Origin: Clostridia bacterium
GTDB taxonomy: Bacteria > Bacillota > Clostridia > Christensenellales > CAG-1252
Direction of reading: 5' to 3'
DNA length: 64,000 nt
Assembly (NCBI GenBank): GCA_017394805.1
Contig: JAFPXC010000011.1
Coordinates: 20,421 to 84,420, forward strand
Position 1 is the stretch's first letter. Each line of letters begins with the position of its first letter. The notes beneath the pieces are model-generated. The model was not told the DNA's origin. It made no database searches and worked only from the letters and a program-made list of their open reading frames with translations. Below are positions 3,023 through 63,006 of this stretch, one piece after another. Position numbers and translations under genes: made by a program.

Positions 3023-6000
3023 CTACTTGATCACCACAAACGAAATCAACTCGAAGTCGTCTAATGCAAACATATTTTGCTGGAATAACACCTTGCTGCC
3101 AACCTTGAATAGCGACTGCAAATCGTTTTCCTCTTTCGCCGCAATGATGCTGGCAATGGCACCATCCAACAACTCGTTGTATTTCTCCATTCTTGCACCA
3201 TCTTTTGTCTCCCGATTGAATCGACGACACAAATCTGCAAGAGGCTCTGCATTGCCTTTGCAAGTAGCGCGTAGCACATCCAACACATACTTGACCTCAA
3301 GATGGTTATAAAGTATGGTGCCATCATCACGGATATACACCAGATAGAAGGGATGCAAGCGGTTTAGCTTGTTGATGTTGATACCATCATTGCGGTTGCA
3401 CAACACAAAAATGGTGCCCGGCTCAATGCCTTTGGACTCGTCGGCAGCGACTACTGCGTGTAGCCCTTTGGTGACACCTTTAGGATCACCAACCTCTTTG
3501 TGATATGCCACCAAGTCCATTACAAAGTCATTCAAACCCAAGTCCGTGATAGAGATATTGCCGTCAACGTCCTCGAGGTCTTGCAGGGTACCCTCTTGCA
3601 ACTTCTTAAGCTGCTCTTTGCGGTAATCCATTTCCTCCGCTTCTTCGGATATGATGTTGTCGTCGGCAGTAGCGGTAGCATTGACGATGGTCATACGAGC
3701 CGACACACGCTTGTTGAGGTTGATGTATTCGTCGAGCGTGATGTCCGGCCAGAAGTTGACCAACTGAATGCTCGTATTGACGCTTCCGATACGGTCAATA
3801 CGACCGAAACGTTGCACAATGCGCACGGGGTTCCAATGGATATCGTAGTTGATACAAATATCGCAGTCTTGCAGGTTTTGACCTTCGGAGATACAATCGG
3901 TACCTATGAGCACATCAATCTCATGTTTTTCGTCGGGATAGATGACCGCTTTTTGCTTGGATATTGGCGAGAAAAGCGTCAACAATCTATCCGTGTTTGG
4001 ACTACCGCCTATGTTGGTGCGGTTGTCGCCACCACCCGATACACGCGCCGTATATATGCCATACTTCGACAGCATATACTCGCTGATGTTTTGATAGAGA
4101 TAATCCGCAGTATCGGCGAAGGCAGAGAAAATCAACACTTTACGGTTGCCTTCATTGAACGGATGCGCCATCTTTTCTTCAATGAGTTGCTTCAATTCGC
4201 AGAGTTTATTATCATCTGCGGGCGTAACACGCAACATTTCGTGATATAGACGATATAGTATATCGGCGTCGTTTTGAATCTCACGGCGCCAAGTGGTAAC
4301 GTCAATGTCCGCCAACTTGATCTCGATAGTCTTGCCGGCAGCTATCTTCTCCAAAGAAAAGTCGTTGTCTTCGTCCGGATCAACGATGGCATATTCGGCA
4401 ACCTCTTTCTTGATGGATGCCGTTGTGTCGCCCGCCAAGAACCTATCAATGGTAGCCAACATCTCTTTATTGATGTCAAGCAATTTTTTGAGCGTGATGC
4501 GGAAGGCGTGAACACTGCTCTCCAAACGTTTCAAGAGCCCAATAGTCATCAACTTCTTCAATCCGCTTTCACGGTGCTTTTGACGCGTCAAGCCTTGTCC
4601 AAGAGCGTTGGCGTTGGGATTCTCTTTAGAAAGATCCACCTCGTACAACTCTTCGTACTCGTCTATACGCGAGGGGAACAGCATCGCCAACGGAGCATAA
4701 ACGCTCATGTTCATCTCCAGCAACAAGTCATAGATTTGTTTATAGGAGAGGATGGCTGGGTTATTCGTCAGCTTGGGGTACTTGGAAACGACAGGCAAAC
4801 GTGTGGGGAATTGCCCAATGTCGGCAGTGCTGTAATACTTCTGAATGTGTTTACGGCTACGTGCGATGGTTACGCTATCCAAGATGATTGAGAAGTCGAT
4901 GTCCAACTTATCAATAAGGTCTTTGGCATGGCGTTCCTCGATAGGCAACTTACTCCAAGCATTGAATACCTTTTGCGCTTGCTGGAAAACAACCTGCACG
5001 TCTTTGTCGGTACCAATCGTTTCGCTCATTTCTTCATAGTTGCCGCAGTATGCCAACAACAACTGATTCTTCAAATCGTTGTAACGGTTGTTGACAGGTG
5101 TGGCAGACAGCATCAAAACCTTTGTCTTAACGCCATCTTGCATGATGCGTTTCATCAAAAAGTCATAGCGCGTGTCCCTATCCTTGCGGGAGGCGTTATT
5201 GTTACGGAAATTGTGACTCTCGTCTATCACCACCAAGTCATAGTTGCCCCAGTTCACGGTAGCAAGGTCTATGCCGCCACTCTTGCCCGAAGTGCGTCCC
5301 AAATCAGTGTGGAATAGCACGTCAAAACGAATACGGTCTTTGTAGAAGATATTAACCTTGGTGTTGCCTTGATACTGCGTCCAGTTCTGCTCCAAGCGCT
5401 TAGGACAAAGCACCAAAATAGACTTGTTGCGCAAGGAATAGTATTGCATGACGGCAAGGGCGGTGAAGGTTTTGCCCAAGCCCACGCTGTCGGCAAGAAT
5501 GCAGCCGTTGTATTTCTCTAGCTTGTTGATGATGCCGACGGCACCATCCTTTTGGAAATTGTACAACTTGTTCCAAATAAGACTGTTCTTGAACCCCGTA
5601 GCCTCGTTGGGCATATAGTCGGAGTCGAGATCTTGCAAAAACTCACGGAAGATGTTGTACAGAATGATGTAGTAAATGAACTCCGGCGAGTTTTCTTTGT
5701 AGCAAGATGAAATGTAATCCACGATGGCAGCAGTGATGTCTTCCACATCATCGTCATTTTGCCAAAGTCGATCGAACTCCGTCAAAAAACTACGGCTATA
5801 ACTAGCGTCGTCGGTCTTAATGATTTGTACCAAGTGGCTACCGTTACTCTCATATCCCAACTCGGCGGTAGTAAAGCCTCCAATAGGCGTATATGTGGTG
5901 CTATGCTCGTGGTTGGTGATATTGACGGAGGTCTGCGTATAGCCCTCGCTCTTGATAGACTTGATTTGCACCTTGTTACGGATCCACTCGGCACATTCAC

Positions 6001-6325
6001 GCGCAATGGCTCTCTGCGTCATTTGGTTGCGCAACCGTATCTCGAAGTCCGTGCCACACAAGGAAGATTCGCTGAACTTAGGGATAAAGAATTCACGCTT
6101 TTCTTTTTTGATATTGTCGGTAATATGAGCATCTACGAAGGTCGGCGTAGTAAAAAGGAAACGCAATTCTTCAATGCCTTCCAACTCTTCACGCAAAGCC
6201 GCGTATGCGTATATGGAAAAACACGATGCCGCTATGCGTACCCTGTCTGCTCCCAGCAACTCCTTTTTGAGGTCGTCGCCCAACAATTTGCTCGTATTAT
6301 TGATGATATCAATCATTGCTTTCAT
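3023..6325 (-). CDS. SNF2-family (SF2) helicase-related protein, 1100 aa
   Basis: Motif I LADSVGLGKTFTALAV, motif II DLVVIDESHNFRN, motif III LMLSATPVNN, motifs V-VI LIGTDCISEGQNLQD...HWNPVRIVQRFGRIDRIGS. The N-terminal ~230 aa and C-terminal ~200 aa are unassigned. The start could be ATG 6325 or ATG 6316. Confidence 0.9.
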   Translation of the reverse strand: MKAMIDIINNTSKLLGDDLKKELLGADRVRIAASCFSIYAYAALREELEGIEELRFLFTTPTFVDAHITDNIKKEKREFFIPKFSESSLCGTDFEIRLRNQMTQRAIARECAEWIRNKVQIKSIKSEGYTQTSVNITNHEHSTTYTPIGGFTTAELGYESNGSHLVQIIKTDDASYSRSFLTEFDRLWQNDDDVEDITAAIVDYISSCYKENSPEFIYYIILYNIFREFLQDLDSDYMPNEATGFKNSLIWNKLYNFQKDGAVGIINKLEKYNGCILADSVGLGKTFTALAVMQYYSLRNKSILVLCPKRLEQNWTQYQGNTKVNIFYKDRIRFDVLFHTDLGRTSGKSGGIDLATVNWGNYDLVVIDESHNFRNNNASRKDRDTRYDFLMKRIMQDGVKTKVLMLSATPVNNRYNDLKNQLLLAYCGNYEEMSETIGTDKDVQVVFQQAQKVFNAWSKLPIEERHAKDLIDKLDIDFSIILDSVTIARSRKHIQKYYSTADIGQFPTRLPVVSKYPKLTNNPAILSYKQIYDLLLEMNMSVYAPLAMLFPSRIDEYEELYEVDLSKENPNANALGQGLTRQKHRESGLKKLMTIGLLKRLESSVHAFRITLKKLLDINKEMLATIDRFLAGDTTASIKKEVAEYAIVDPDEDNDFSLEKIAAGKTIEIKLADIDVTTWRREIQNDADILYRLYHEMLRVTPADDNKLCELKQLIEEKMAHPFNEGNRKVLIFSAFADTADYLYQNISEYMLSKYGIYTARVSGGGDNRTNIGGSPNTDRLLTLFSPISKQKAVIYPDEKHEIDVLIGTDCISEGQNLQDCDICINYDIHWNPVRIVQRFGRIDRIGSVNTSIQLVNFWPDITLDEYINLNKRVSARMTIVNATATADDNIISEEAEEMDYRKEQLKKLQEGTLQDLEDVDGNISITDLGLNDFVMDLVAYHKEVGDPKGVTKGLHAVVAADESKGIEPGTIFVLCNRNDGININKLNRLHPFYLVYIRDDGTILYNHLEVKYVLDVLRATCKGNAEPLADLCRRFNRETKDGARMEKYNELLDGAIASIIAAKEENDLQSLFKVGSKVLFQQNMFALDDFELISFVVIK

Positions 6326-7109: not shown

Positions 7110-7151
7110 CTTGCAAAGTTTTTCAAATCTTGTCTAACACTGTCTCACAGC

Positions 7152-7219
7152 GTTAGGCGTGCCTTGTCTTTGAAACAAGCACGCGCGCGACGCGCGCGTG
7201 AAGACAAGGCACGCCTAAC
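7152..7219. repeat. Nested perfect hairpin, candidate double-strand origin or recombination site
   Basis: The outer 19-bp stem is GTTAGGCGTGCCTTGTCTT (7152-7170) with AAGACAAGGCACGCCTAAC (7201-7219). The inner 10-bp GC stem is CACGCGCGCG (7180-7189) with CGCGCGCGTG (7191-7200). No T-run follows on either strand. It lies 140 nt from the Rep stop. Confidence 0.7.
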
Positions 7220-7360
7220 AACGAATCAACCAACGCCCAACCGAACCAATTACGCGCTTTCGACTGTCCGATGTGAGCGGCCGCAGGGGGCTCGCTAAAC
7301 CGCTACGCCACACCTGCTTGAACCGTCTCACACATTTCGGGCATTTCCCGAAAGGCGTCG

Positions 7361-8374
7361 TTAGTTGGATTTACGGAGTTGGGCGCGTGTTTCTTCGCTG
7401 TTTACGCCGACGTACACGCCTTCATCCCAACAGTCAAAATCCTCGAATAGTAGCAGTTTCTTGTCTTCCATTCCTGTCCGCATAATCACGTCTTTGTCCT
7501 CGATGTCGCTCATTACATACATGGGGAGTCCGCGACTGTACACAATCTTCTCTCCCGTCTTTTCGATGTACTTCAAGATATAGTCGATGGTTGAGCCCAG
7601 ATACATCGGGCCCTTCGTCGCCAACATATCAAACTCGTTGCGTCCGTACTTTTCATCGAAGAAGGTATTGTGGGTGTATTCCACCATGCGTCCACTCTTT
7701 TTGTTGTACTCCCGCGTGTCTTGTAGCATCCCTACCATTTGTCCTTCGGGCACATTCAATAGACAGTGAAAGTGCAGTCGTTCGGTCTCGCTTCCGCGTT
7801 CCCATACTCCCATATAAGTCCAGCCTCTCGCCGTATGGAAGTTTTGCAGCGTTCTCATAAGCCGCCACTTGAAAGTTACTTCATCCATCTTGGCGCTGTC
7901 GTATGTGAAGGTCGCAAAGTAATTGAAGTTGTTGAGGTGCGCCTTCCTCATAAACCGCTGTCGCTTGGCATTGAGCGCCTTGTTCTTTTCTTCCAACTTC
8001 TCCGACACATACTCCCACATCTTATTGTAGTGGGGAAACAGTTTCTTCATCTCGCTCAATATGTACTTGCGCCGGCGTTTCGGCGTCAAATCAAAACTCT
8101 CTCGATACAGCCTTTCAAACTCGGCTTTCTTCGTCGTATGGCGCTTGGTAGATTGAGATTCCGTAGAGGTTGTGTCCTCCACCGGCGTCTCCGTCTCGCA
8201 AGCATCGGTCGTTTCACTTTCAGCTTGCGTTGGTGCCGCCGTATGGTCGTCAACCTCTACTATCTCTTCTACCTCGGGGCGCCTATGCTTTGCGCTAGGG
8301 TTAGGTTCGTAAGGGATAGCGATATAATGGACGCCATCACAATACACCTTTGCATTGGGATACCATTTGCTCAT
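7361..8374 (-). CDS. Rolling-circle replication initiator (HUH endonuclease, two-tyrosine type)
   Basis: Motif 1 FATFTYD, motif 2 RLHFHCLLNV (HUH), motif 3 DYILKYIEK (YxxxY, as in phiX174-type Reps). I moved the start to ATG 8374, which has GGAGG 6 nt upstream. The 20 upstream codons in the track ORF have no RBS. Confidence 0.8.
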   Translation of the reverse strand: MSKWYPNAKVYCDGVHYIAIPYEPNPSAKHRRPEVEEIVEVDDHTAAPTQAESETTDACETETPVEDTTSTESQSTKRHTTKKAEFERLYRESFDLTPKRRRKYILSEMKKLFPHYNKMWEYVSEKLEEKNKALNAKRQRFMRKAHLNNFNYFATFTYDSAKMDEVTFKWRLMRTLQNFHTARGWTYMGVWERGSETERLHFHCLLNVPEGQMVGMLQDTREYNKKSGRMVEYTHNTFFDEKYGRNEFDMLATKGPMYLGSTIDYILKYIEKTGEKIVYSRGLPMYVMSDIEDKDVIMRTGMEDKKLLLFEDFDCWDEGVYVGVNSEETRAQLRKSN

Positions 8375-8420
8375 GTTCCACCTCCAAGATAGTTTATCCC
8401 GAGCGCGGATAGAGGCAGGG

Positions 8421-10547
8421 CTAGTCCTCGTCACTCGGATCGGAGTAAATGCCCTCTATGAAATAACTGTGTTGCTGATGCAACTCGTCAATGGTTGCCT
8501 TTGTCCCGGCGTATGACGGATAATCGTTCAATCCAACGTTTGTTTTCTTCGCCATTTCTGCAAAGAAGTCTCCAAATGCGTCGGTTGCAAAACGCTCTGC
8601 GTATATCTTTTGGTGCAACAAATAATACTTTTTTCTCTCGGGCTTGGAGTCCATTGTGCCGCGCTCTTTTTCGATGCTCAACGTGCTATACCCAAATCGG
8701 TTTTCTATGCGTTTTTTGTACTTGTACAGCCACGAAACGACGCTCTTCAAGAGGTAGACCAACAACGTGTTGTCGCCTCGTCTAAACCGCATTTTTTCGT
8801 ACAGTCGCCCGAAGCCGTTGTAAGACCAATCGCACAGCATATCTTCTAGCACGAAGAACGGTAGAGCCAACCCATTCGGGGATGTGTCCGTGATAGTGAT
8901 GACGTCGCAGAGGTCGCGTGCGTCGGCGCCCCAAGAGGCTGCGCGTTGCTCGTCGGCAAATACTTTGATGAAGGGGTAATTGTCTACGGTGGCACTATGG
9001 CGGCACATTTTCAACCAAAGGTTGAAGTCGTCGTTTTTCTGATTCGCCTTGTCGTCACCTTTCTTGATTTCTTTGAGTTCCAACATATTTCCGCGCTCCT
9101 TGCCAACTTCGCTGATCACGACGGTGCCAAACTCAAATGAACCAATATTCGGGTTGTCCTCTATCATCTTTTTCCCCAGGCGCAAGGTATCGAAATCGAG
9201 TATGTGAGCATACCGCGATTTGCGTAACCGACGCTTGGGGAAGAAGTTGTTGTACCACAACGGGAAGTTTCCCCCGTCTTGCAAAACAGAGTCCTCTCGT
9301 ATGGCGTAGTTGGATACAAGCAAAGAGGACTGTACCACATAGATGAAATACAGTTGTGCGTAGATCTCCAGCGCGTCGAATAAGGACAGCGTTTTGAGGT
9401 TGTTGTCGTAGCTCATGCCGTATCGCGCCGTGTCGTACCCATACAGTTGCTCAACGTTGTCTTGTCGCCTTCGGTATCGCTGCTCTTTCTTTCGCACCCA
9501 CTCCCTCGCCGTAGCCAAGTTGTAGACTGTATGGTACTCCATACACCGGCGCAACGCCATCTCAAAAGATATCCACGGGAAGAAGGGGAACATCATATCT
9601 ATCGCCACCAACCTTTGGTACGCTTCTTGCCGAAACATAACCGCTTGCGATAACGCCATGTCGGTGATCGCCGTTGTTTTGCGTTTTCCCATACTACCGC
9701 AGGTGAGCGTCACGATAGGCAATTCCTTGATAAAACCGCAATTCTTGGCTTCCATGTGTCGCAAACGTGCATCGGCGATACGCTCTCTCCAACGACAAAA
9801 CACCTTCCAGATATAAGGCAAAAAAAGGTACCATGGGAACCGTAGGAACAGCACTTGCAAGTCCATGATCAATTTGACCGCCTGCATATACAAGCCGCCC
9901 AACTGATACGAGGACGCGAAGTAGAAGTAGTACCCCAAAGCAGATAGCAATATCGCACCGAAGTTGAGGTTGAACGCCCAAATGATGATGTACAAATATA
10001 CCAGATTGGGGTGGTACGTTAGGTACTCTTTGTAGCCGATGGCAAACTGTTTGAACGGCTGATATACCGTGTTAGATAGTTTCTTGAACCGTTTGAGCGG
10101 GCGCGTGTCCTTGTTGTGCTTGGTGTTCGGCTTGCGGTACAGCATTATGATTGCCATTATGACGCCGGCGATAAGCGGGAAGCACATTATCAAGATTTTG
10201 GACGCTCTCTCCATCTTGGAGAGTTCGGCGAGTAGCCAACCCGTTGCATTCGTTTCATCTACCAAAAGCGTGCCGTACTGTTCGGTCTTCGTCTTGAATA
10301 GCGCCCAAGTTTCGGGCCAATTTATTAGCCATTCCATCACTTGGGACTTGTTACCGATGGTGACGTCTAAGTCTATAGGGCGGTGTAGAACGAAATATAG
10401 GTAGTGCTTCAAGCAACTCCAAAAGTCCACGGCAGATTCGGCGAGGCGCAGATAGGATTTGTAATAGACGCTTGCACCCAGCATGATCGCCACAGCAAAG
10501 AAGATAAAGGTTACTGCAATGTTCAATCGTCGCTGTCTTTTATCCAT
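8421..10547 (-). CDS. Membrane-anchored P-loop NTPase (708 aa)
   Basis: The N-terminal ~270 aa have four to five hydrophobic helices. Walker A is CGSMGKRKTT (aa 283-292) and a Walker B-like segment is TVVISEVGKE. I cannot assign a family by eye; Zot/pI-like or FtsK/TcpA-like are both possible. Confidence 0.75.
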   Translation of the reverse strand: MDKRQRRLNIAVTFIFFAVAIMLGASVYYKSYLRLAESAVDFWSCLKHYLYFVLHRPIDLDVTIGNKSQVMEWLINWPETWALFKTKTEQYGTLLVDETNATGWLLAELSKMERASKILIMCFPLIAGVIMAIIMLYRKPNTKHNKDTRPLKRFKKLSNTVYQPFKQFAIGYKEYLTYHPNLVYLYIIIWAFNLNFGAILLSALGYYFYFASSYQLGGLYMQAVKLIMDLQVLFLRFPWYLFLPYIWKVFCRWRERIADARLRHMEAKNCGFIKELPIVTLTCGSMGKRKTTAITDMALSQAVMFRQEAYQRLVAIDMMFPFFPWISFEMALRRCMEYHTVYNLATAREWVRKKEQRYRRRQDNVEQLYGYDTARYGMSYDNNLKTLSLFDALEIYAQLYFIYVVQSSLLVSNYAIREDSVLQDGGNFPLWYNNFFPKRRLRKSRYAHILDFDTLRLGKKMIEDNPNIGSFEFGTVVISEVGKERGNMLELKEIKKGDDKANQKNDDFNLWLKMCRHSATVDNYPFIKVFADEQRAASWGADARDLCDVITITDTSPNGLALPFFVLEDMLCDWSYNGFGRLYEKMRFRRGDNTLLVYLLKSVVSWLYKYKKRIENRFGYSTLSIEKERGTMDSKPERKKYYLLHQKIYAERFATDAFGDFFAEMAKKTNVGLNDYPSYAGTKATIDELHQQHSYFIEGIYSDPSDED

Positions 10548-16216: not shown

Positions 16217-16244
16217 TTGACTTGCACATAAAAAGTGGTATAAT
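16217..16244 (+). promoter_or_regulatory. Consensus extended -10 promoter of the antiporter gene
   Basis: TTGACT (16217-16222), a 16-nt spacer ending in TGg, then TATAAT (16239-16244). Confidence 0.7.
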
Positions 16245-16250
16245 GGTGAT

Positions 16251-16355
16251 AAGGAAATGATGCACTTCCTTCCTCGATAGAGGAGAACCGCCCACTGCGG
16301 GGCTGATGGCGTCTACACGATTGGCGATTGCCAAAAGTGTTGGCGTCGTTTTTTT
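16251..16355 (+). promoter_or_regulatory. 5' leader with alternative pairings and an intrinsic terminator (attenuator or candidate riboswitch)
   Basis: Hairpins AAGGAA/TTCCTT (16251-16271) and CCTC-GATA-GAGG (16272-16283). GCCAA (16330-16334) can pair either with the upstream TTGGC (16321-16325) or with the downstream TTGGC (16340-16344). The downstream pairing extends to about 9 bp and is followed by TTTTTTT (16349-16355). Confidence 0.5.
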
Positions 16356-19059: not shown

Positions 19060-19464
19060 ATGAAAAAAGCCGTCATTTATGCAAGGTATCGTGGAGATGC
19101 CAGCATACCCGCACAACCGTATATCGAGGAACAAATTGAAAAGTGCATGTGCTATGCGCAAGAACACGATATACAAGTCAAAAGAGTCTATACCGAGATA
19201 GAAGTATGGGGAGTACCCGCACAACCGAGAGTAATCCGCGAACAAATGATATTGGACAGCGCAAGTCACGAATGGGATACCGTACTCGTTACCGATATGG
19301 ACAAGCTCGCAAGAAAACGCACTGACGCTTGGGAGTGCAAACACCGTTTAGAAAAGAACGGAGTCACCATCGAGCCCATCACTCAAAAGAACATTGCCGA
19401 GGAAATCATCATCGAACAAATCTTGATTGGCATGGAAAAGTATGAAGCAAGGAGGAAGAAATAA
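19060..19464 (+). CDS. Resolvase-domain-only serine-recombinase paralog lacking the canonical nucleophile context
   Basis: 134 aa. AVIYARYRGDAS stands where the neighbouring recombinase has AVIYARYSSESQ. DMDKLARK stands where the neighbour has KLDRFSRN. The stop overlaps the next ATG (TAATG). Confidence 0.7.
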   Translation: MKKAVIYARYRGDASIPAQPYIEEQIEKCMCYAQEHDIQVKRVYTEIEVWGVPAQPRVIREQMILDSASHEWDTVLVTDMDKLARKRTDAWECKHRLEKNGVTIEPITQKNIAEEIIIEQILIGMEKYEARRKK

Positions 19465-21011
19465 TGCAAACAGCGGTAATCTATGCTCGCTACAGCAGCG
19501 AATCGCAAAACGAACAGTCCATAGAAGGACAGTTGCGCGTGTGTAACGCGTACGCGGAGGCGCATCATCTATTGGTTCTCAATCAATATATCGACCGCGC
19601 TATGACAGGCAGAAATGACGCCAGACCGGAATTCCAAAAGATGCTCGCGGACAGCAAAGACCACAAATTCGAGGTGGTGCTGGTCTACAAGTTGGATAGG
19701 TTCTCCCGTAACAAATACGAATCGGTCATGCACAAGAAAACGTTGAAAGACAACGGAGTGATCGTCGTATCGGCGACAGAGAACATACCCGACACACCCG
19801 AGGGCGTTATCTTGGAATCGCTTTTGGAAGGCATGAACCAATACTACTCGATGGAGTTGTCCCAAAAAGTACACCGTGGCTTGACCGAGAGTTATCTCAA
19901 AGGCAACTTTACCGGCGGGCGCATTCGCTACGGCTATAGAGTCGAAGGCAAAAAGGTGTACATCGTCGAAGAAGAGGCAGCCATTATCCGTGAGGTGTAT
20001 TTCAAATACGCACAGGGATATACCGTGCCCGACATTCTTCTTTCCCTCAATAATCGCAACCTACGAAACCGAGAGGGCAACTCCTTCCACGTGAAATACC
20101 TATACGATATGCTTCACTATCCCAAATATCGGGGGTTGGTAGAACACGATGGGGTTGTCTACGACAACATATTCCCGCGTATCATAAGCGACGAGATATG
20201 GGAAAAAGTCTCACAACGACACCAAGAAGACGCGTTGGGCGTCGGCGTCAAAACAAGCAGCAACTATCTATTGTCCGGCAAGATGTACTGCGCTCATTGC
20301 TTTCATCCGCTAATCGGCATCTCTGCGCATGGTCGGCACTGCAAATACTACTATTATGCCTGTAATCGGGGCCGTCGCGTACCGAATGACTGCGAAGCGA
20401 GACCGCTCGACAGAGATACGATACACGACATAGTATTCAACACGACCTGCGCTCTCGTTGCCGACAATAATATGATCGCCGAGCTTGCTCATCTCATTAT
20501 GCAAGAGCACAACCGAGCCGTGAAAGACGACTACACGTTGCAATCGCTGGAGAGCAGGTTGCAAACAGTAAAGCGTGCGATGGAGAATTTGTTGCGTGCC
20601 ATTGAGTCGGGCATCATCACCGAGCAAACGAAAGCGCGTATGGAAGAACTGCAAGAACAAGCACAACGCTTGCAGCTGGAAATCAACGTGGAGAAGATAC
20701 GGGTACGCCCCGACCTCGAAACCATTGATGTCGTGGACTTCCTGCGATCGCAATTCTTTGGCGAAACGCAAGACGACGAGATACGAAAAGCGTTGCTGAA
20801 AACTTTTATCTACACGATAATACGCGATGACAACAAGATAACGATAGTGTACAACTTCCGCAATGATTACAACCCGACGAAAATCAAGCGAGAGGAATTG
20901 GAAACGCTACTACATATAGCAGAACAAAAAGGGGTGGTCTTCAAAAAGGCCACCTACTTTTTTACTCCAGACCGCTTCGGAGTACAAATATCCTACAATC
21001 CGTCGGCGTAA
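19464..21011 (+). CDS. Large serine recombinase (515 aa)
   Basis: N-terminal resolvase domain with YARYSSESQ and VYKLDRFSRN. It also has a recombinase domain, a Cys-rich zinc-ribbon region (CAHC...C...C) and a C-terminal coiled coil. Confidence 0.9.
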   Translation: MQTAVIYARYSSESQNEQSIEGQLRVCNAYAEAHHLLVLNQYIDRAMTGRNDARPEFQKMLADSKDHKFEVVLVYKLDRFSRNKYESVMHKKTLKDNGVIVVSATENIPDTPEGVILESLLEGMNQYYSMELSQKVHRGLTESYLKGNFTGGRIRYGYRVEGKKVYIVEEEAAIIREVYFKYAQGYTVPDILLSLNNRNLRNREGNSFHVKYLYDMLHYPKYRGLVEHDGVVYDNIFPRIISDEIWEKVSQRHQEDALGVGVKTSSNYLLSGKMYCAHCFHPLIGISAHGRHCKYYYYACNRGRRVPNDCEARPLDRDTIHDIVFNTTCALVADNNMIAELAHLIMQEHNRAVKDDYTLQSLESRLQTVKRAMENLLRAIESGIITEQTKARMEELQEQAQRLQLEINVEKIRVRPDLETIDVVDFLRSQFFGETQDDEIRKALLKTFIYTIIRDDNKITIVYNFRNDYNPTKIKREELETLLHIAEQKGVVFKKATYFFTPDRFGVQISYNPSA

Positions 21012-23738: not shown

Positions 23739-25043
23739 ATGAAACGCTTTTTCCGCATACTCTTGTCCCTCGCGCTCATTGGCAGCCTATTGTGCGCCGC
23801 CGTGGCCTGCACCACGCCCGCAGAGGCCGGCGTCGTGCGGCTGTCCGCGTCCACCACGGCCCTGAACAAAGTCAACTACGCCGCCTCGGGCGACGCGACC
23901 GCTTCGACCGACGAAGCGTTCCGTACTAAACTCTCCGACTTCTCGGCCAAACTCTACGCCTTGTGCGCCGAGGGTGCGGAGGACGACTACGTCTTCTCTC
24001 CCCTCTCGGTCTATATGGCGACGGCCATTCTGTACAATTTGGGCGACGAAGCCATCAAAGCGGATATTCGCGCGCTCTTCGGTATGAGCGATGCGGAGAT
24101 CGCCAAAACGGGCGACCTCTTTATGGGCCTCATCAACGAGCGATACGAGGGCGTAGGCAAGGGCACGTTGGTCACCAAGGTGGACGTCAACAACTCCATT
24201 TGGCTGGACAACGCGCTGACGACCAACCAAACAGCGTTGGATCGCATCGCCGAGGCGCTCTATTGCCGCGCCTACCGCACCCCCTTCGCGGACGACAACA
24301 AGCAGGCCAACAAGGATATCCGCGCCTTCATCAAGCAAATGACGAGGGGGCTTATCGACCAAGACTTCGGCCTCACGGCGGACACCCTGCTCGCCATCGT
24401 CAACACCCTTTATTTCAAAGACCTGTGGAACTTCGACAGCCGCGATTTGGCGACGGAAACGCGCACCTTCCACGCGCCCGCCGAGGACAAAGAAACCGAA
24501 TTCCTCATCGGCAAATATACGAGCGGCACGGTGCAAGAGACGGACTCTGCCACCTATTTCTATACCACCACCGACGCGGGCTACCGCTTCAAATTGATAC
24601 TGCCCAAAGAGGGGCGCACCCTTGCCGAAGCGATGAGCGCGCAGTCGCTCGCCCAAATCAACGCCACCACCGACTACGGCGCCCGCAAAGGCGACGTCAA
24701 CTACGAAACCCGTTGCATCTTCCCCTCTTTCCGCGTGGAGAGCGATACGCCCCTGAAAGATATTTTGGAACACAATCACTATTTGCCCACGGCGTTCAAC
24801 GGCTTTGGCTCCGACCTCACCGACCAACCCCTCGCCGTGTCGGACATCAAGCACAAGGTTGTGCTTAACGTAGACAAAAAAGGCGTGGAAGGCGCGGCCG
24901 TCACCATTATTGCGATGAAGAACGCTTCGGCGGGAATGTTCGATACCGTACGCGCCGACTTCGTGTTGGATCGCCCATTCGGCTTCCTCGTCACCGATCG
25001 TGAGGGCGTGGTACTCTTCTCGGGTCAAATCGTCACCCCATGA
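23739..25043 (+). CDS. Serpin-family protease inhibitor, predicted lipoprotein
   Basis: Signal peptide with the lipobox AAVAC. Serpin-like segments are FSPLSVYMATAILYNLG, the hinge-like KKGVEGAAVT and the C-terminal FVLDRPFGFLV. Confidence 0.8.
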   Translation: MKRFFRILLSLALIGSLLCAAVACTTPAEAGVVRLSASTTALNKVNYAASGDATASTDEAFRTKLSDFSAKLYALCAEGAEDDYVFSPLSVYMATAILYNLGDEAIKADIRALFGMSDAEIAKTGDLFMGLINERYEGVGKGTLVTKVDVNNSIWLDNALTTNQTALDRIAEALYCRAYRTPFADDNKQANKDIRAFIKQMTRGLIDQDFGLTADTLLAIVNTLYFKDLWNFDSRDLATETRTFHAPAEDKETEFLIGKYTSGTVQETDSATYFYTTTDAGYRFKLILPKEGRTLAEAMSAQSLAQINATTDYGARKGDVNYETRCIFPSFRVESDTPLKDILEHNHYLPTAFNGFGSDLTDQPLAVSDIKHKVVLNVDKKGVEGAAVTIIAMKNASAGMFDTVRADFVLDRPFGFLVTDREGVVLFSGQIVTP

Positions 25044-25095
25044 GCCTCACGAACCATGCGCACGTAGTTACGCCGCCACGTTCGACGCCAACGAA

Positions 25096-25135
25096 AAAGG
25101 GTTCTTTCTCTCATAGAAAGAACCCTTTCTATTCT
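25096..25135. terminator. Bidirectional-type terminator hairpin
   Basis: The 14-bp stem AAAGGGTTCTTTCT / AGAAAGAACCCTTT (25096-25128) has an A-run on its 5' side and a T-rich tract on its 3' side. Confidence 0.6.
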
Positions 25136-25334
25136 CACCGCAACGCACGCCGAAGCGTGCAATTCACGATACCCAAAGGGTATCAATTCACGACCGCAGG
25201 CCAATTCACGCCGCAATTAGCGGCAATTCACTCTACCACCGTAACTCGCCATAGGCGCACTTCACTCAAGGCTATGCCTTGAACTTCACCGCGAAGCAAC
25301 TTCGCTTTGCCAAAGGCAAAACTTCACTCGCTCG
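25132..25334 (+). repeat. Mosaic hairpin array A (7-nt spacer alternating with short hairpins)
   Basis: AATTCAC occurs at 25161, 25185, 25203 and 25225. ACTTCAC occurs at 25259, 25283 and 25321. The intervening hairpins are GCACGC-CGAA-GCGTGC, GATACCC-AAA-GGGTATC, GCCGC-AATTA-GCGGC, CGCC-ATA-GGCG, TCAAGGC-TAT-GCCTTGA, GCGAAG-CAA-CTTCGC and TTTGCC-AAA-GGCAAA. Confidence 0.85.
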
Positions 25335-26546
25335 CTACATCGCGCGGATAATTTCGTCGATGCGACGAGCGCACTTGCGGCATTCCTCTTCTTTCCATCC
25401 TTTGGTGGTCATGGCCGCCAAACCCACGCGCACGCCCGACGCCTCGCGGGGCGAACGCTTCTCGTTGGGAATGCAATTCTTGTTGAGGGTGATGCCGTGC
25501 TTGTCCAATTCATCCTGCACCATGCGCCCCGAAATCGAGGGGAACTTCTTGGACAAGTCGATGAGGAACAGGTGATTGTCCGTGCCGCCCGTCACCACGT
25601 CGTAGCCCATCTTGAGAAACTCGTCGCACATGGCCGCCGTGTTTTTGACGACCTGGTGAATGTAGTTGCGATATTCCTCTGTGCACGCTTCGCACGCCGT
25701 CACGGCCTTGGCAGCCACCACGTGTTGCAAACCGCCCCCCTGCATACCGGGGAAGACTGCGGAGTCCACTTTGCGCGCCAATTCGGGACGGCAGAACACC
25801 AAGCCGCCACGCGTGCCGCGCAAGGTCTTGTGAGTAGTCGTGGTCACTATGTCGGCCAAGCCGAAGGGGCTGGGATGGTCGCCCGCGACCACCAAACCCG
25901 CGATATGCGCCATATCCACCATGAAGTAGGCGCCCACCTCTTTGGCCACCTCGGCGAAGCGGGCGAAGTCGATGATGCGGCTGTAAGCCGACGCACCCGC
26001 CAAGATGAGGTTGGGCTTGCACGCCAACGCTTTGGCGCGCATATCCTCGTAGTCGATGACGCCCTCGTCGGTGACGCCGTAGAACACCATCTTGTAGGTC
26101 TTGCCGCTGAAGTTGACCGCGCTGCCGTGCGTGAGGTGACCGCCGTTGTCCAGACTCATAGAGAGAATGGTGTCGCCGGGATTGAGCACGGCCATATACG
26201 CGGCCATATTGGCCTGCGAACCGCTATGCGGTTGCACATTGACGTGATAATCGGTGCGGAACGCCTTTTGGAACATATACCGAGCGTACAACTCGATATA
26301 GTCGATATTTTCACAGCCGCCGTAGTACCTGCCGGTGCTACCCGTATGCACGTAATCGGGAAACTCCTTTTGGAACGCCTCGACGGACGTCCGCTCGGGA
26401 TAGCCCTCCGCGTACTTGTTGGTGAGAACCGAACCCGCCGCCCGCAAGACGTCCTGCGACACGAAGTTCTCGCTTGCGATCAATTCGACGAAGTTCTTTT
26501 GTCTGTTTTCCTCTCTCTCGATGGCTTGAAAAATCTTCTCTTTCAA
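25335..26546 (-). CDS. glyA: Serine hydroxymethyltransferase
   Basis: SHMT-typical segments are ELIASENF, LTNKYAEGYP, GGHLTHG and TTTHKTLRG (PLP lysine). The likely start is TTG 26546, with GGGAGG 6 nt upstream. The track start GTG 26561 abuts that RBS. Confidence 0.93.
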   Translation of the reverse strand: MKEKIFQAIEREENRQKNFVELIASENFVSQDVLRAAGSVLTNKYAEGYPERTSVEAFQKEFPDYVHTGSTGRYYGGCENIDYIELYARYMFQKAFRTDYHVNVQPHSGSQANMAAYMAVLNPGDTILSMSLDNGGHLTHGSAVNFSGKTYKMVFYGVTDEGVIDYEDMRAKALACKPNLILAGASAYSRIIDFARFAEVAKEVGAYFMVDMAHIAGLVVAGDHPSPFGLADIVTTTTHKTLRGTRGGLVFCRPELARKVDSAVFPGMQGGGLQHVVAAKAVTACEACTEEYRNYIHQVVKNTAAMCDEFLKMGYDVVTGGTDNHLFLIDLSKKFPSISGRMVQDELDKHGITLNKNCIPNEKRSPREASGVRVGLAAMTTKGWKEEECRKCARRIDEIIRAM

Positions 26547-26595
26547 AGTATTCCTCCCCACGCGTTGGCGCGCTTGTTTTCCGTAAGTAATTATT

Positions 26596-41228: not shown

Positions 41229-41500
41229 TGCTGCGCTATGTGGGGAGCTAGCGGTGCCCTGTAACTTGCAATCCGCTACAGCAAGACAGAACGCTTATCG
41301 AGGCATTTAGTATGGGAGGCTGACTTCGGCAAGGAGTGTTGATACTTGGGTCTTGTGCAACGACGCACTGCGAACCATGTCAGGGCTTGACGGCAGCAGC
41401 ATTAAACAGACCGTGTTGTGTGCCACGAGGTAGCTCAAGAGGAGCCACCTACCGCGGGATCGCTCCGGTGCTACTTGTCGGAATAAGTGCGCAGTATTCA
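41229..41500 (+). ncRNA. ffs: Signal recognition particle RNA, long (Alu-domain-containing) form
   Basis: The Alu-domain string GCGGTGCCCTGTAACTTGCAATCCGC matches the remembered Bacillus scRNA. The S-domain segments GTCAGGGC..GGCAGCAGC and GTGTGCCACGAGGTAGCT align with E. coli 4.5S GUCAGGUCCGGAAGGAAGCAGC and GUGUGCCGGGAUGUAGCU. The 5' CTGCGC (41231-41236) pairs with the 3' GCGCAG (41489-41494). The ends are approximate. Confidence 0.8.
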
Positions 41501-42796: not shown

Positions 42797-43082
42797 ATCG
42801 TTTATTATACCATAAAGCCGCTTTACTTTCAATAGTTTTTGCTCTATTCCCCAAATCCTACGCAAAACCCTCGCCTTCCGCTATCCCGCCCACAATTAAT
42901 ACGGCGCATTGCATAGCAATATCTCGCGTTCGTAGCAGTCGAATATGGTTTCTCGCGCTTTGCGCGTCCGCAACGCAACGACCGTCTCAATTCACGCACG
43001 CATAGCGTGCGATTCGCTCTATCCGTCGCCGAGCGATACACGTTGGCGAATATCTCGCGCATTCGCGCTCATATAGATAGGT

Positions 43083-49000: not shown

Positions 49001-49192
49001 TCGGTACCTCTATTTTTTGATACTACGCTATTAATAGTCCGTTTTTCTCAAAAATACTCTTTTACACCAAATTCTTAACGAAATCTTAATAATAATACGC
49101 GTATTACGGGTATCCTGCCGCATTCTGCGCCCGCTTTCGGCGGAATCCGCGCCGAAGTACATAATCCGCCCGATTCCGCGCATACCAACGGT

Positions 49193-50463: not shown

Positions 50464-50531
50464 CGTTTCCGCCCGAACCCTATCGCTCCTTGCACGAAAA
50501 AGGGCTGTCGAGAAGCAATCCCGACAGCCCT

Positions 50532-50655
50532 CTATTCTGCCTCGTTCGCTACGCGCCCGAGGCAACGTAGCCGCGATTCACTTTATAGCGGCACACCGCA
50601 TTCGCCGTAGGCGAAAACCGCGTAGCCTACGCCCGCACTTCGTGCCGACGCGTCG
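50532..50655 (+). repeat. Mosaic hairpin array D
   Basis: It follows the terminator hairpin at 50501-50531. It contains TGCCTCG...CGAGGCA (50538-50564), GATTCAC (50575), TTCGCC-GTA-GGCGAA (50601-50615), GCGTA-GCC-TACGC (50620-50632), GCAC-TTC-GTGC (50635-50645) and CGACGCGTCG (50646-50655). Confidence 0.7.
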
Positions 50656-53633: not shown

Positions 53634-53674
53634 CTTCTTTCTGTCCGCAACGCATAATCCGTTATTGTTCCATC

Positions 53675-54030
53675 GTCCGCAGGCGGACATCACGCGAAGC
53701 GTGTATATCGTCACAGCCATAGGCTGTGCATATTTTTTATTCGGCGGTGCGAAAAAAAAGCCTCGGCGCCATAGGCACCGAAACTCCCCTTATCAGCACT
53801 TCCCTTGCGGGGAAGATTTTTCAAATACTTTACACGCCGCAAGGCGTACCTCGCATCGGCTTTGCCGACACATCGCCTTTGTCCTCGGCAACTATTTCGC
53901 ATTCGCCGCAGGCGAACCACATCCCGACGAATGCCGGATTTCTCCTGCTCGCGGTTCGAGCAGATTTTCCCCATTCGTCAGAATGGATTTCTCCCAAGGC
54001 GATGCCTTGGATTTCACTTACGCCAAGGCG
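53675..54030 (+). repeat. Mosaic hairpin array C
   Basis: At least 12 short hairpins are present. Examples are GTCCG-CAGG-CGGAC (53675-53688), CACGC-GAA-GCGTG (53691-53703), CACAGCC-ATA-GGCTGTG (53712-53728), ACGCC-GCAA-GGCGT (53834-53847) and TTCGCC-GCA-GGCGAA (53902-53916). The last four units are ATTTCTC (53938), ATTTTCC (53964), ATTTCTC (53987) and ATTTCAC (54011). Each is followed by a hairpin, including CCAAGGC-GAT-GCCTTGG. Confidence 0.8.
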
Positions 54031-54034
54031 CGCC

Positions 54035-54922
54035 CTACGCGACTTCCAACCCCAACGCTTTACGCAATTTGCCGCGAATTTCGACCAAAATGGCGGATAC
54101 GCGTTGACGGCTGACGCCCACTTGATAGGCGATCTCGGTGATGGTCATGCGGTCGGCGTCGCCCAAACCGACGTAATGCTCGAGAATGTAGCGTTCGCGG
54201 TCGGACAACAGGTCGCTCTCGATGGCCTCGTAGATGAGGCGCAGGGTCTCTTCGTCCGCGACGATATCCTCGGGATTGGCGTCTTCGTCGGACACCGAGT
54301 CGCCGAAGGTCTCCCCGTCAGGCTCTTCGGCGTTGACGGGCTTGTCCAAAGACGCGGACACGTTGCCGAGCGCCAAGAGGTTGCGCACCTTGTCTTGCGC
54401 TTTTTCCTTTTTGTAGGGGGGCATAGAGGGGTAGTCGCGCTTGCTGAACTTTTGATAGAAGCGTTTGGTCGTTTCCTCGAGCGCTTCCCACTCGCTCATG
54501 CCGTCGGCGATCAACGAACGATAGGCCAAACGAACGAAGGTGGATTGACGACGCACGTTGATTTTGACGGCCATACCGTCCTTCATACCGTCCAATTTTT
54601 TGGTCAGGTGGCGCAGAACGATGACGCGCGCATAGGTGCGGAAAGAAGCGTGACTGAGATTGTCCACGTCGTACTTCTCCAAGATTTTGGTCAAGTAGAA
54701 GGCACCCTCCTGCACCAAGTCCAAGATCATGGGACACAGGCCGAACACCGAACGCACCGTGGACGCCAACCAACACAGTTGTGCGGACAAGAATGCGTCG
54801 CGAGCCGCCATGTCGCCGCTTCGTTTGTATTCGCGAAGCAACGCGTTCTGTTCTTCCGCCGACCGCATATAGCGGTAGCAAGATTTGTAATAACTCTTAT
54901 AGTCATCCCAATCGTTTTTCAT
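54035..54922 (-). CDS. Sigma-70-family RNA polymerase sigma factor (295 aa)
   Basis: Region 2-like DLVQEGAFYL...FRTYARVIVLRHL and region 4.2 ITEIAYQVGVSRQRVSAILVEIRGKL. Confidence 0.82.
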   Translation of the reverse strand: MKNDWDDYKSYYKSCYRYMRSAEEQNALLREYKRSGDMAARDAFLSAQLCWLASTVRSVFGLCPMILDLVQEGAFYLTKILEKYDVDNLSHASFRTYARVIVLRHLTKKLDGMKDGMAVKINVRRQSTFVRLAYRSLIADGMSEWEALEETTKRFYQKFSKRDYPSMPPYKKEKAQDKVRNLLALGNVSASLDKPVNAEEPDGETFGDSVSDEDANPEDIVADEETLRLIYEAIESDLLSDRERYILEHYVGLGDADRMTITEIAYQVGVSRQRVSAILVEIRGKLRKALGLEVA

Positions 54923-58822: not shown

Positions 58823-58860
58823 ACTCCTCTCCTTGTTTTTATAGGTTTCACATCTATAAA

Positions 58861-58963
58861 TTCCACAACTCGCCGTAGGCGAACTTCACTCAAGGCCTTG
58901 CCTTGAACTTCACTGCGAATGCTACTTCACTTTCGCATAGCGAAAACTTCACCGCACTTGTGC
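58861..58963 (+). repeat. Mosaic hairpin array B
   Basis: ACTTCAC occurs at 58883, 58907, 58924 and 58946. The hairpins are TCGCC-GTA-GGCGA (58870-58882), TCAAGGC-CTT-GCCTTGA (58890-58906, the same stem as array A at 25266-25282) and TTTCGC-ATA-GCGAAA (58931-58945). Confidence 0.85.
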
Positions 58964-62259: not shown

Positions 62260-62697
62260 CTAATATTGTATCACTTCGCCATCGGCCAAGTGCAACCGAA
62301 ACGCCGCCGAATAGGGTTGAAATTCCGCGTCAAACGCTTTGTCCCATTGCTCCTTCGTCCCCGCAAAATAAACGTCCTCGAGATTATAGCAGTGGTCCAC
62401 TATCTCGGGCATCAAGGTGACCAAGGGGTTGTCTATCCTGAGCACCTTCAATTCGGAGCAATCGAAGGCACGGCTCCCCACCCAAAAGACATTGCGGGGC
62501 AACGTGATCTCCTCCAACGCACTGCAATAGAAGGCCTTGTCTTCTATCTTCTTGACGCTAAGGGGCAAGCGCACCTTCCTTACCGCGCTGTTGGCGAAGG
62601 CATACGCGCCGATGACCGTCACGCCCTCGGGCACCACGACCTCCTCTTCACAGCACTCCACGACCAACAACACACCATTCTCTATCTTACACCTCAT
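62260..62697 (-). CDS. BspA-type leucine-rich-repeat protein (small)
   Basis: IGAYAFANSAVRKVRLPLSVKKIEDKAFYCSALEEITLPRNVFWVGSRAFDCSELK is the LRR_5-type repeat. The likely start is ATG 62697. The track's TTG 62748 is unsupported. Confidence 0.68.
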   Translation of the reverse strand: MRCKIENGVLLVVECCEEEVVVPEGVTVIGAYAFANSAVRKVRLPLSVKKIEDKAFYCSALEEITLPRNVFWVGSRAFDCSELKVLRIDNPLVTLMPEIVDHCYNLEDVYFAGTKEQWDKAFDAEFQPYSAAFRLHLADGEVIQY

Positions 62698-62748
62698 ACG
62701 CACCTCACTCCCTATGATACTCCACTTTCGCTCCTCGGTCAAGGGCAA

Positions 62749-62860
62749 AGTTCACCTAAGGTAAACGAGATACTCGCTACGCAATGAATTGATTGCTCCG
62801 CAATCATGAATTGGCTACCGCCATGATTTCTTGCCTCCGCTCCATGAATTGGCTCCGCCA
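62749..62860 (-). repeat. Mosaic array E (degenerate, opposite orientation)
   Basis: AGTTCAC occurs at 62749. ATGAATTG (the reverse complement of CAATTCAT) then occurs at 62784, 62806 and 62844, with the variant ATGATTTC at 62823. These are separated by ATTGC-TCC-GCAAT and weak GGC..GCC dyads. Confidence 0.55.
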
Positions 62861-63006
62861 TTGTGTATATTCCCAAACAAAAAGCCAAAGCATTTACCGC
62901 CTCGGCTTAATAATAACGTCACATCATTGCCCGCAAACCATTTATATCGTTTGTAAGTATAAATAGGCGCAGCAATGCATCCTCGGATATCGCACAATAC
63001 GTTCCA

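Follow-up and report, generated by a model that had tools for sequence, protein, structure and literature searches.

The subject of this article is an intergenic tract of short conserved linkers and variable hairpins that follows the gene glyA in a 64-kb stretch of DNA from a Clostridia bacterium (contig JAFPXC010000011.1, listed in ENA as XIEF21-1_SAMN15829939 scaffold_904; the whole stretch is referred to as the window). Judged by its sequence, the tract is a sub-threshold variant of the Gut-1 architecture (Rfam RF01706), which is catalogued from uncultured gut Clostridia, and represents no new kind of system. It is read here, at about even confidence, as a dispersed, fast-turning-over extragenic repeat with a lifestyle like that of repetitive extragenic palindromic (REP) sequences and bacterial interspersed mosaic elements (BIMEs), which would be transcribed only incidentally as the 3′ untranslated region (UTR) of glyA. 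In copy number, patchiness, and turnover, it behaves like a repeat and not like a gene.

Architecture of the tract behind glyA

The linker A[AC]TTCAC occurs seven times on the plus strand, four times as AATTCAC (25161, 25185, 25203, and 25225) and three times as ACTTCAC (25259, 25283, and 25321), with start-to-start spacings of 24, 18, 22, 34, 24, and 38 nucleotides (nt). The seven copies at 18 to 38 nt of a preliminary description of this DNA are thus recovered at exact positions. Their clustering is the striking part: the actual sequence contains up to seven copies within 170 nt, and 300 dinucleotide-preserving shuffles of the window never exceed two, whereas the total number in the window is in modest excess (25 copies versus 14.4 expected). 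The hairpins between the linkers, which had likewise been reported, hold up equally well. The glyA tract and the sister array at 58.9 kb together comprise nine inter-linker intervals. Five of them are single, perfect hairpins flush with the linkers, with stems of 5 to 7 bp; in shuffled intervals, the mean number was 0.2 and never more than two occurred. As for the others, the interval 25290–25320 accommodates two hairpins, 25192–25202 a 4-bp hairpin for which one G·U is needed on the minus strand, and 58914–58923 in the sister array a weak hairpin partly built from the adjacent linker; the interval 25232–25258 is a junction between elements. Both strands of 25090–25340 fold beyond their shuffles, with z = −6.4 for the minus and −8.0 for the plus strand. 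A strict unit requires a linker carrying no more than one mismatch, then a flush hairpin and a second linker. By this definition, the window comprises eight units, against 0.07 per shuffle, and other Clostridia loci totaling about 1.3 Mb comprise 10, two of them from a real array in L034. The linker–hairpin tract is thus real and lies far outside what chance would give, and the enrichment agrees with the earlier idea of a modular extragenic repeat dispersed in the genome.

Read from its sequence, 25129–25334 is composed of two tandem copies of a small multicopy extragenic element and not, as first described, of a single array. The switch from AATTCAC to ACTTCAC occurs because the two elements meet there. 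On the minus strand, element 1 starts with CGAGCGA and GUGAAGU, followed by the hairpin UUUGCC/GGCAAA and GCGAAGU, the latter being a linker within the hairpin GCGAAG/CUUCGC. It continues with GUGAAGU, the hairpin UCAAGGC/GCCUUGA, another GUGAAGU, the hairpin CGCC/GGCG, and the terminal GUUACGG UGGUAG. Its plus-strand linkers are located at 25321–25327, 25283–25289, and 25259–25265. Element 2 contains the hairpins GCCGC/GCGGC, GGCC-UGC-GGUC (with one G·U), GAUACCC/GGGUAUC, and GCACGC-UUCG-GCGUGC, and ends in GUUGCGG (plus-strand CCGCAAC, 25138–25144). UGAGAAUAG follows, directly before a 14-bp terminator-like hairpin, after which UUUUUCGUU comes next on the minus strand. A simple terminator scan made no call on this hairpin at 25096–25128.

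The general anatomy on the minus strand can be summarized as follows. An element begins a few bases downstream of a stop codon, carries three to five short, near-perfect Watson–Crick hairpins of unlike stems, and ends in GUUGYGG...UAG. Herein, the ends of the GUGAAnU linkers (AU, GU, or UU on the 5′ side and GU on the 3′ side) can close the neighboring stems, which leaves approximately GAA unpaired. Hence, the conserved seven-nucleotide segment and the variable palindromes of the preliminary description stand, but the segment is no free spacer, as its ends pair and extend the stems beside it.

Paralogous elements and compensatory stem changes

The roughly 100 nt after the glyA stop (minus strand, 25334 down to 25232) align unit for unit with a homologous element at 58860–58962, and both share a layout of four linkers, four hairpins, and a terminal GUU(A/G)(C/U)GG. 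In one pair of stems, TTTCGC/GCGAAA versus TTTGCC/GGCAAA, two base pairs are swapped in a compensatory manner; in another, GUGAA-guagca-UUCGC with a U·G is opposed to GCGAAG-uug-CUUCGC with a C–G. The TCAAGGC/GCCTTGA hairpin differs between element 1 and the 58.9-kb copy in its loop only. Further compensatory pairs among the copies are CTGCTCG/CGAGCAG versus CCGCTCG/CGAGCGG and TCAAGGC/GCCTTGA versus CCAAGGC/GCCTTGG. The recurrence of hairpin types at other loci of the window, which had been noticed before, is real, and the pattern of substitutions indicates that the copies are related by descent with their stems kept complementary.

Relationship to the Gut-1 RNA

Gut-1 was listed as “RNA: Y; cis-regulatory: n,” from the human gut only and with 43 representatives (Weinberg et al. 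2010, Genome Biol 11:R31, PMC2864571), and the supplement of that study notes the motif in no sequenced organism. Its Rfam type is “Gene; sRNA.” Literature searches returned nothing on Gut-1 besides this one paper, in which multicopy dispersal, strain turnover, and phage carriage are not described.

At gathering thresholds, Rfam makes no call on the tract; in the whole window, it reports only the signal recognition particle (SRP) RNA and a fluoride riboswitch. The similarity to Gut-1, whose gathering threshold is 50 bits, surfaced only in an E-value-threshold scan of a small region, with minus-strand matches at 25278–25356 (28.0 bits) and 25157–25233 (17.6 bits). A third minus-strand match lies at 53889–53972 (23.9 bits). 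L221, an array with the ACTTCAC linker of the window, scores 53.3 bits and exceeds the threshold. Since the window scores stay below 50 bits and L221 reaches 53.3, the tract is treated as a sub-threshold variant of Gut-1. Canonical GTGAAAT arrays or composites score 77.5 (L460), 71.1 (L510), and 61.7 bits (L516), and the L034 array, which is cut by the contig end, 34.8 bits. The preliminary description had not recognized a described family, a view that is superseded by the match of the architecture to RF01706.

The Gut-1 consensus reads CAaUGAAAU-hairpin-GUGAAAU-hairpin-GUGAAA-hairpin-UGAAAU. Each stem of the model is closed by the AU that terminates a linker, which pairs with the initial GU of the next linker (A–U and U·G), so that only GAA stays unpaired. 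Aligned to this model, the tract exhibits at least three covarying hairpins, GUGAAAU-type linkers, the closing pairs, and about 3 unpaired nt (GAA). The U·G closing pair is kept in GUGAAGU and GUGAAUU; the second closing pair turns into G·U in GUGAAGU, and GUGAAUU lacks it. The linkers at 53.9 kb are GUGAAAU, GAGAAAU, and GGAAAAU. The layout of the tract recurs in the Gut-1 seed sequences, and the solo arrays among them (BAAY01013587 and BAAZ01023714) end in GUUGCGG, a type of terminal motif that the window arrays share. On the plus strand, it is found as CCGCAAC at 25138–25144, CCGTAAC at 25239–25245, CCACAAC at 58863–58869, and CCACATC at 53917–53923, with further CCGCAAC sites at 53645–53651 and 42968–42974. 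Likewise in common are U-first, pyrimidine-rich loops, the strand of the matches relative to the linker, and hosts of the uncultured gut Clostridia type. The differences concern the linkers (GUGAAGU/GUGAAUU in the window, GUGAAAU/GUGAUAU in Gut-1), the greater length of the window arrays with two tandem elements and eight hairpins, one interval with two hairpins, and the source, which is human gut for Gut-1 according to the paper and looks like ruminant gut here, going by sample labels and nearest metagenome-assembled genomes (MAGs).

That the arrays are independent trans-acting small RNA genes, in line with the Rfam typing and the RNA, not cis-regulatory listing by Weinberg et al. (2010), is considered quite improbable. 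Some Gut-1 seed sequences do contain a terminator about 100 nt downstream. However, the arrays of the window begin 7 to 17 nt after stop codons and, therefore, leave no room for a promoter, and the only promoter-like match in 24900–25500 is a weak one on the plus strand; moreover, there are many copies per genome, their hairpins differ, and their presence or absence varies between strains.

Distribution among loci, strains, and phages

At least six loci of the window carry arrays, the glyA tract and at least five further ones (Table 1). Three of these loci display the order stop codon, array, and terminator-like hairpin, a position that fits the multi-hairpin 3′ UTR offered earlier as one alternative. 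An esterase-like gene ends in a TAG stop directly before the 58860–58962 element, and a PCC-domain gene lies downstream of it. This esterase–PCC site gives the strongest result on turnover: another strain (L533) encodes an identical PCC protein and contains a different element with GTGAAAT/GAGAAAT linkers and other hairpins, the last two units of which are homologous to the 53.9-kb array of the window with a compensatory change from C–G to T–A. Therefore, subfamilies exist, elements are copied between loci, and turnover takes place between strains. Further strain look-ups at the dnaG, 605-aa, and sigma-factor loci yielded identical sequences only.

A comparison of orthologous regions for gain and loss of units had been suggested earlier. 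In relatives with glyA identities of 91%, 86%, and 85%, only a terminator is located behind glyA and no arrays are nearby; at 77% and 74%, no arrays are found in about 40 kb (about 67 kb were searched in total across the 74–91% range). The orthologous intergenic regions at 85–91% identity are too diverged to reveal an insertion site. A glyA scan of GTDB gave rumen and gut MAGs with at most 68% identity as best matches, and arrays were present only in L003 and L034. In L034 (57% glyA identity), GTGAAGT units lie directly behind glyA in sense orientation. L003 (68%) harbors a convergent doublet between the divergent spoU and spoIIE genes, with the linkers AGCTAAATT and AATTTAGCT on opposite sides. 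In L220, an array resides between the stop of a methyltransferase gene and the start of yjbR, sense behind the former. Three independent assemblies (L002, L088, and L535) end inside arrays, as is expected because the sequence is multicopy. Arrays thus break metagenome assemblies, and they could serve as strain markers. As a separate observation, the efp–polA spacer of L084 (5280–6260; 86% glyA identity) contains about four copies of a repeat of about 200 to 300 nt with an assembly gap inside.

Phage contigs carry arrays, too. The phage contig L089 contains an ACTTCAC-linker array (7150–7270) between the TerL and portal genes in antisense orientation, and the phage contig L403 likewise carries the array type (3990–4057 and 7846–8044), together with a GP20-b RNA. 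L516, which is among the phage contigs with arrays, and L460 have arrays beside tRNA clusters. In a metagenome scan for three ACTTCAC copies, two of the 120 matches were real and the rest simple tandem (satellite-like) repeats; viral scans returned about 12 real arrays, most matches being tandem repeats as well.

Some arrays form convergent doublets (L003, 17300–17520; L221, 1–145; L516, 13091–13259; L510, 3619–3795). These consist of a terminator-like hairpin, a left array, an AT-rich center, and a right array with the reverse-complement linker, the number of linkers being about equal on both sides. The stretch made up of the start of the left array and its first half-stem is reverse-complementary to the center together with the first right linker (e.g., GTGAAATAAATCC and GGATTTATTTCAC), and this complementarity covaries between families. 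From the sequences, a long-range helix is possible, as is a ladder of four-way junctions into which the complementary left and right linkers could zip.

The three clean window arrays follow TAG stops (at 25335, 58963, and 54035), and so does the L533 element (665–667); glyA ends in TAA in the relatives without the array. TAG accounts for six of the 26 stops of other genes in the contig, a sample too small to judge, and L220 and L034 depart from this pattern. The window and L533 elements are flanked by TAG...TAG, flanks that are absent in L220, L034, and L089. They may mark a target site or its duplication, not as a general feature. The terminator-like hairpins at 25096–25128 and 50497–50530 share minus-strand flanks, AGAAUAGA before and CCCUUUUUCGU after the hairpin, and therefore the terminator behind the arrays may be part of the element.

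Propagation as DNA or constraint as RNA

In the favored reading as an extragenic repeat, the element would propagate as DNA or single-stranded nucleic acid in the manner of REP/BIME or REPIN (REP doublets forming hairpins) elements, and a postulated trans-acting factor would read the linker and the shape of the hairpin, not the sequence of the stem. Palindromy may be kept partly via hairpin-templated (quasipalindrome) correction. Since it lies between the glyA stop and the terminator-like hairpin, the array would be cotranscribed with glyA as its 3′ UTR, where the string of hairpins would most likely provide only a passive barrier to 3′-exonucleases or an insulator between the convergent genes.

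Propagation at the DNA level is favored because of the near-pure Watson–Crick stems, the DNA-like loops, the antisense, divergent, and doublet sites, and the turnover. Structured RNAs usually carry several-fold more G·U than is seen in the stems of the arrays. Herein, the variable stems contain five G·U in 318 pairs in one orientation and six in 331 in the other, that is, less than 2% in each and without asymmetry. Among 58 unique units, the loops read on the ACTTCAC strand mostly have G or A first and A last (GCA, GAA, GTA, AAA, GCAA, and GTAA), and 31 are triloops; this GNA/GNRA-like pattern is that of very stable single-stranded DNA mini-hairpins. Folding energy does not distinguish the strands, as both z values are strongly negative and the differences per unit amount to at most 0.7 kcal/mol and depend on whether the linker flanks are included.

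Several points weigh against the repeat reading. The constant U·G closing pair is specific to the Gut-1 strand, would be a C·A mismatch on the other strand, and is thus RNA-like; the same holds for the change from U·G to C–G between the paralogues, which is likewise specific to the Gut-1 strand. Of nine arrays whose context is clear, seven run in the sense direction of the gene upstream (binomial p of about 0.09), which hints at a constraint on the transcript. All three window matches miss the gathering threshold of Gut-1, and Gut-1 itself was rated “certainly RNA” (Weinberg et al. 2010, PMC2864571). In addition, neither a transposase nor any other propagating enzyme was found among the window proteins scanned, and the elements, with their ends read by eye, revealed no terminal inverted repeats and no unambiguous target-site duplication.

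These RNA-like traits lead to the rival that the arrays are a selected cis-acting RNA module of 3′ UTRs and intra-operon spacers whose dispersal is secondary, an explanation that is possible and held tentatively. Such a module would stabilize mRNA, offer processing sites at the single-stranded GAA, or bind or sponge an RNA-binding protein. The minus-strand Rfam matches with the conserved U·G/A–U closing pairs and the substitution of U·G by C–G agree with it, and so do the C(UUCG)G loop that 25145–25160 forms on the minus strand, the stems that require a G·U on the Gut-1 strand (25192–25202 and 53924–53937), and the succession of stop, array, and terminator-like hairpin at three window loci together with the sense arrays behind the L034 glyA and the L220 methyltransferase gene. 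Arrays in antisense (62760–62870 and phage L089), in divergent promoter regions (42.9 kb, 49.1 kb, and L003), and in convergent doublets do not fit such a module, nor do variable stems without G·U enrichment. Furthermore, glyA of close relatives lacks an array and the array of another strain differs at one site; with arrays being absent or replaced at the same genes, no gene-specific requirement is visible.

If the repeat reading holds genome-wide, the classification of Gut-1 as a small RNA gene should give way to that of a REP-like repeat family found in Oscillospirales-type Clostridia. An orphan “sRNA” in Rfam since 2010 with a one-sentence description, it would now appear as a multicopy modular repeat with discrete ends and subfamilies.

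Comparison with known repeat systems

REP/BIME sequences with their REP-associated tyrosine transposases (RAYTs) and REPINs are compared here after Nunvar et al. (2010, PMC2817692). Like them, the arrays are short extragenic hairpin-forming repeats with many copies per genome that cluster in 3′ regions and between convergent genes, vary in copy number between strains, show compensatory stem evolution, and have presumed effects on mRNA 3′ ends. Unlike them, they conserve only the linker, whereas a REP consists of one conserved palindrome with a GTAG or CGTC tag; and while the REPs of a BIME alternate in orientation, all seven linkers of the tract are on one strand. Thus, of the likeness to BIMEs drawn in the preliminary description, the lifestyle is retained, but the structure with its variable stems and co-oriented units is not that of a BIME. 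In the inverted doublets of L003, L221, and L516, each half is a whole array. GTAG/CGTC tags are not evident beside the stems in the parsed sequences, although no search was aimed at them, and no RAYT/Y1 (IS200/IS605-like) transposase is found among the open reading frames (ORFs) of the window that were scanned or gene-called, a set with incomplete ORF coverage and confined to 64 kb.

Miniature inverted-repeat transposable elements (MITEs) resemble the arrays in being small, nonautonomous, multicopy, and intergenic, with discrete ends and subfamilies. They differ by their terminal inverted repeats, none of which were seen on reading the element ends by eye, no inverted-repeat program having been run. 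With clustered regularly interspaced short palindromic repeats (CRISPR), the arrays share the alternation of constant and variable parts and the turnover between strains. However, the constant part comprises 7 nt compared with 23 to 50 nt in CRISPR, and the variable parts are palindromes of 10 to 19 nt and not spacers of foreign origin. No cas genes are present among the window proteins scanned. The sole match to a CRISPR repeat is a chance one of 16.6 bits to one hairpin.

The idea of an “inverse CRISPR,” meaning that hairpin units are gained singly beside a conserved linker by a dedicated, cassette-like machinery, is regarded as rather improbable. It would account for the greater likeness of neighboring linkers (four AATTCAC, then three ACTTCAC), for the decay of linkers with distance from one end at 53.6–54.0 kb, for units shuffled between homologous elements (A3 versus L533), and for the conserved terminal motif on every element. 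Yet the loci have whole multi-unit modules in common, which speaks for the copying of elements and not of single units; the two tandem elements account for the switch between AATTCAC and ACTTCAC; and no associated genes were found. A related and unlikely proposal is a self-renewing cassette system, in which a single-strand-specific enzyme would read the linker beside any hairpin and add, copy, or swap modules in Clostridia chromosomes and phages. If true, this would constitute a new class of mobile DNA guided by structure, with strain-specific arrays turning over as fast as CRISPR loci.

It is very improbable that the linkers are double-stranded DNA iterons, for example for heptad-binding ribbon–helix–helix proteins or replication initiators. 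TCAC in 7-bp direct repeats and the inverted doublets elsewhere around an AT-rich center would suit such sites. Nevertheless, the spacing of 17 to 38 bp lacks helical phasing, duplex binding leaves the palindromic constraint on the intervening sequence unexplained, and the arrays are chromosomal and follow stop codons. For the same reason of spacing (18–38 nt, unphased), the tract does not fit the earlier suggestion of TTCAC direct repeats spaced by roughly two helical turns. Omega-repressor heptads (WATCACW), integron attC sites, and DnaA, Spo0A, and CodY boxes were ruled out on sequence or spacing.

Further arrays and features of the window

Table 1. Genes, elements, and arrays of the 64-kb window (coordinates of the window)
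Feature	Position	Strand	Remarks
Serpin gene (PF00079)	23739–25043	+	Convergent with glyA
14-bp terminator-like hairpin	25096–25128		Apparently common to the convergent serpin and glyA genes; function inferred
Element 2	25129–25231	−	Four GUGAAUU linkers (plus-strand 25225, 25203, 25185, and 25161)
Element 1	25232–25334	−	From sequence reading and full-length alignment with the 58860–58962 array
glyA, serine hydroxymethyltransferase (PF00464)	25335–26561	−	TAG stop at 25335–25337, 7 nt before the first linker
Single unit AATTCAC, CGCACGC-ATA-GCGTGCG, GATTCGC	42968–43018	−	CCGCAAC at 42968–42974; divergent intergenic region
Possible decayed array with AATCCGC/ATTCCGC/ATTCTGC linkers	49100–49192	−	Between divergent dnaG and yetF-like genes; weak evidence
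Short or degenerate array with GAUUCAC-type linker and UUCGCC/GGCGAA hairpin	50575–50655	−	Between the stop of the 605-aa gene and a terminator-like hairpin
Hairpin-rich extension of the 53.9-kb array, linkers decayed	53640–53884	−	Distal CCGCAAC at 53645–53651
Array with terminal GAUGUGG	53885–54034	−	Directly after the TAG stop of the sigma-factor gene (54035–54922, minus)
Paralogous four-unit element	58860–58962	−	GUGAAGU linkers; terminal GUUGUGG...UAUAG
Short-stemmed reversed array with AUGAAUU linkers and UCC/UACC loops	62760–62870	+	Antisense to flanking minus-strand ORFs (ORFs judged by translation only)

The convergent Sua5 and sigma-factor genes have their terminator-like hairpins in the region 53640–53884 as well. 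The reversed array is adjoined by the minus-strand ORF 62260–62748, whose 162-aa product, judged by eye, has the look of a leucine-rich repeat protein of the BspA type.

The first 22,000 nt of the window form an island of lower GC content (40–49%), unrelated to the arrays, which probably is an integrated mobile element. It encodes an N6/N4 DNA methylase (424–2364), a DUF4391 protein, an SNF2/ResIII helicase (3023–6325), a protein similar to rolling-circle Rep ORF2/G2P (7361–8434, PF23343), and two serine recombinases (19060–21011); no hairpin arrays lie inside this island. Two structured RNAs of the window exceed their Rfam thresholds, namely the fluoride riboswitch at 16244–16322 (40.7 bits) and the large bacterial SRP RNA at 41231–41494 (173 bits).

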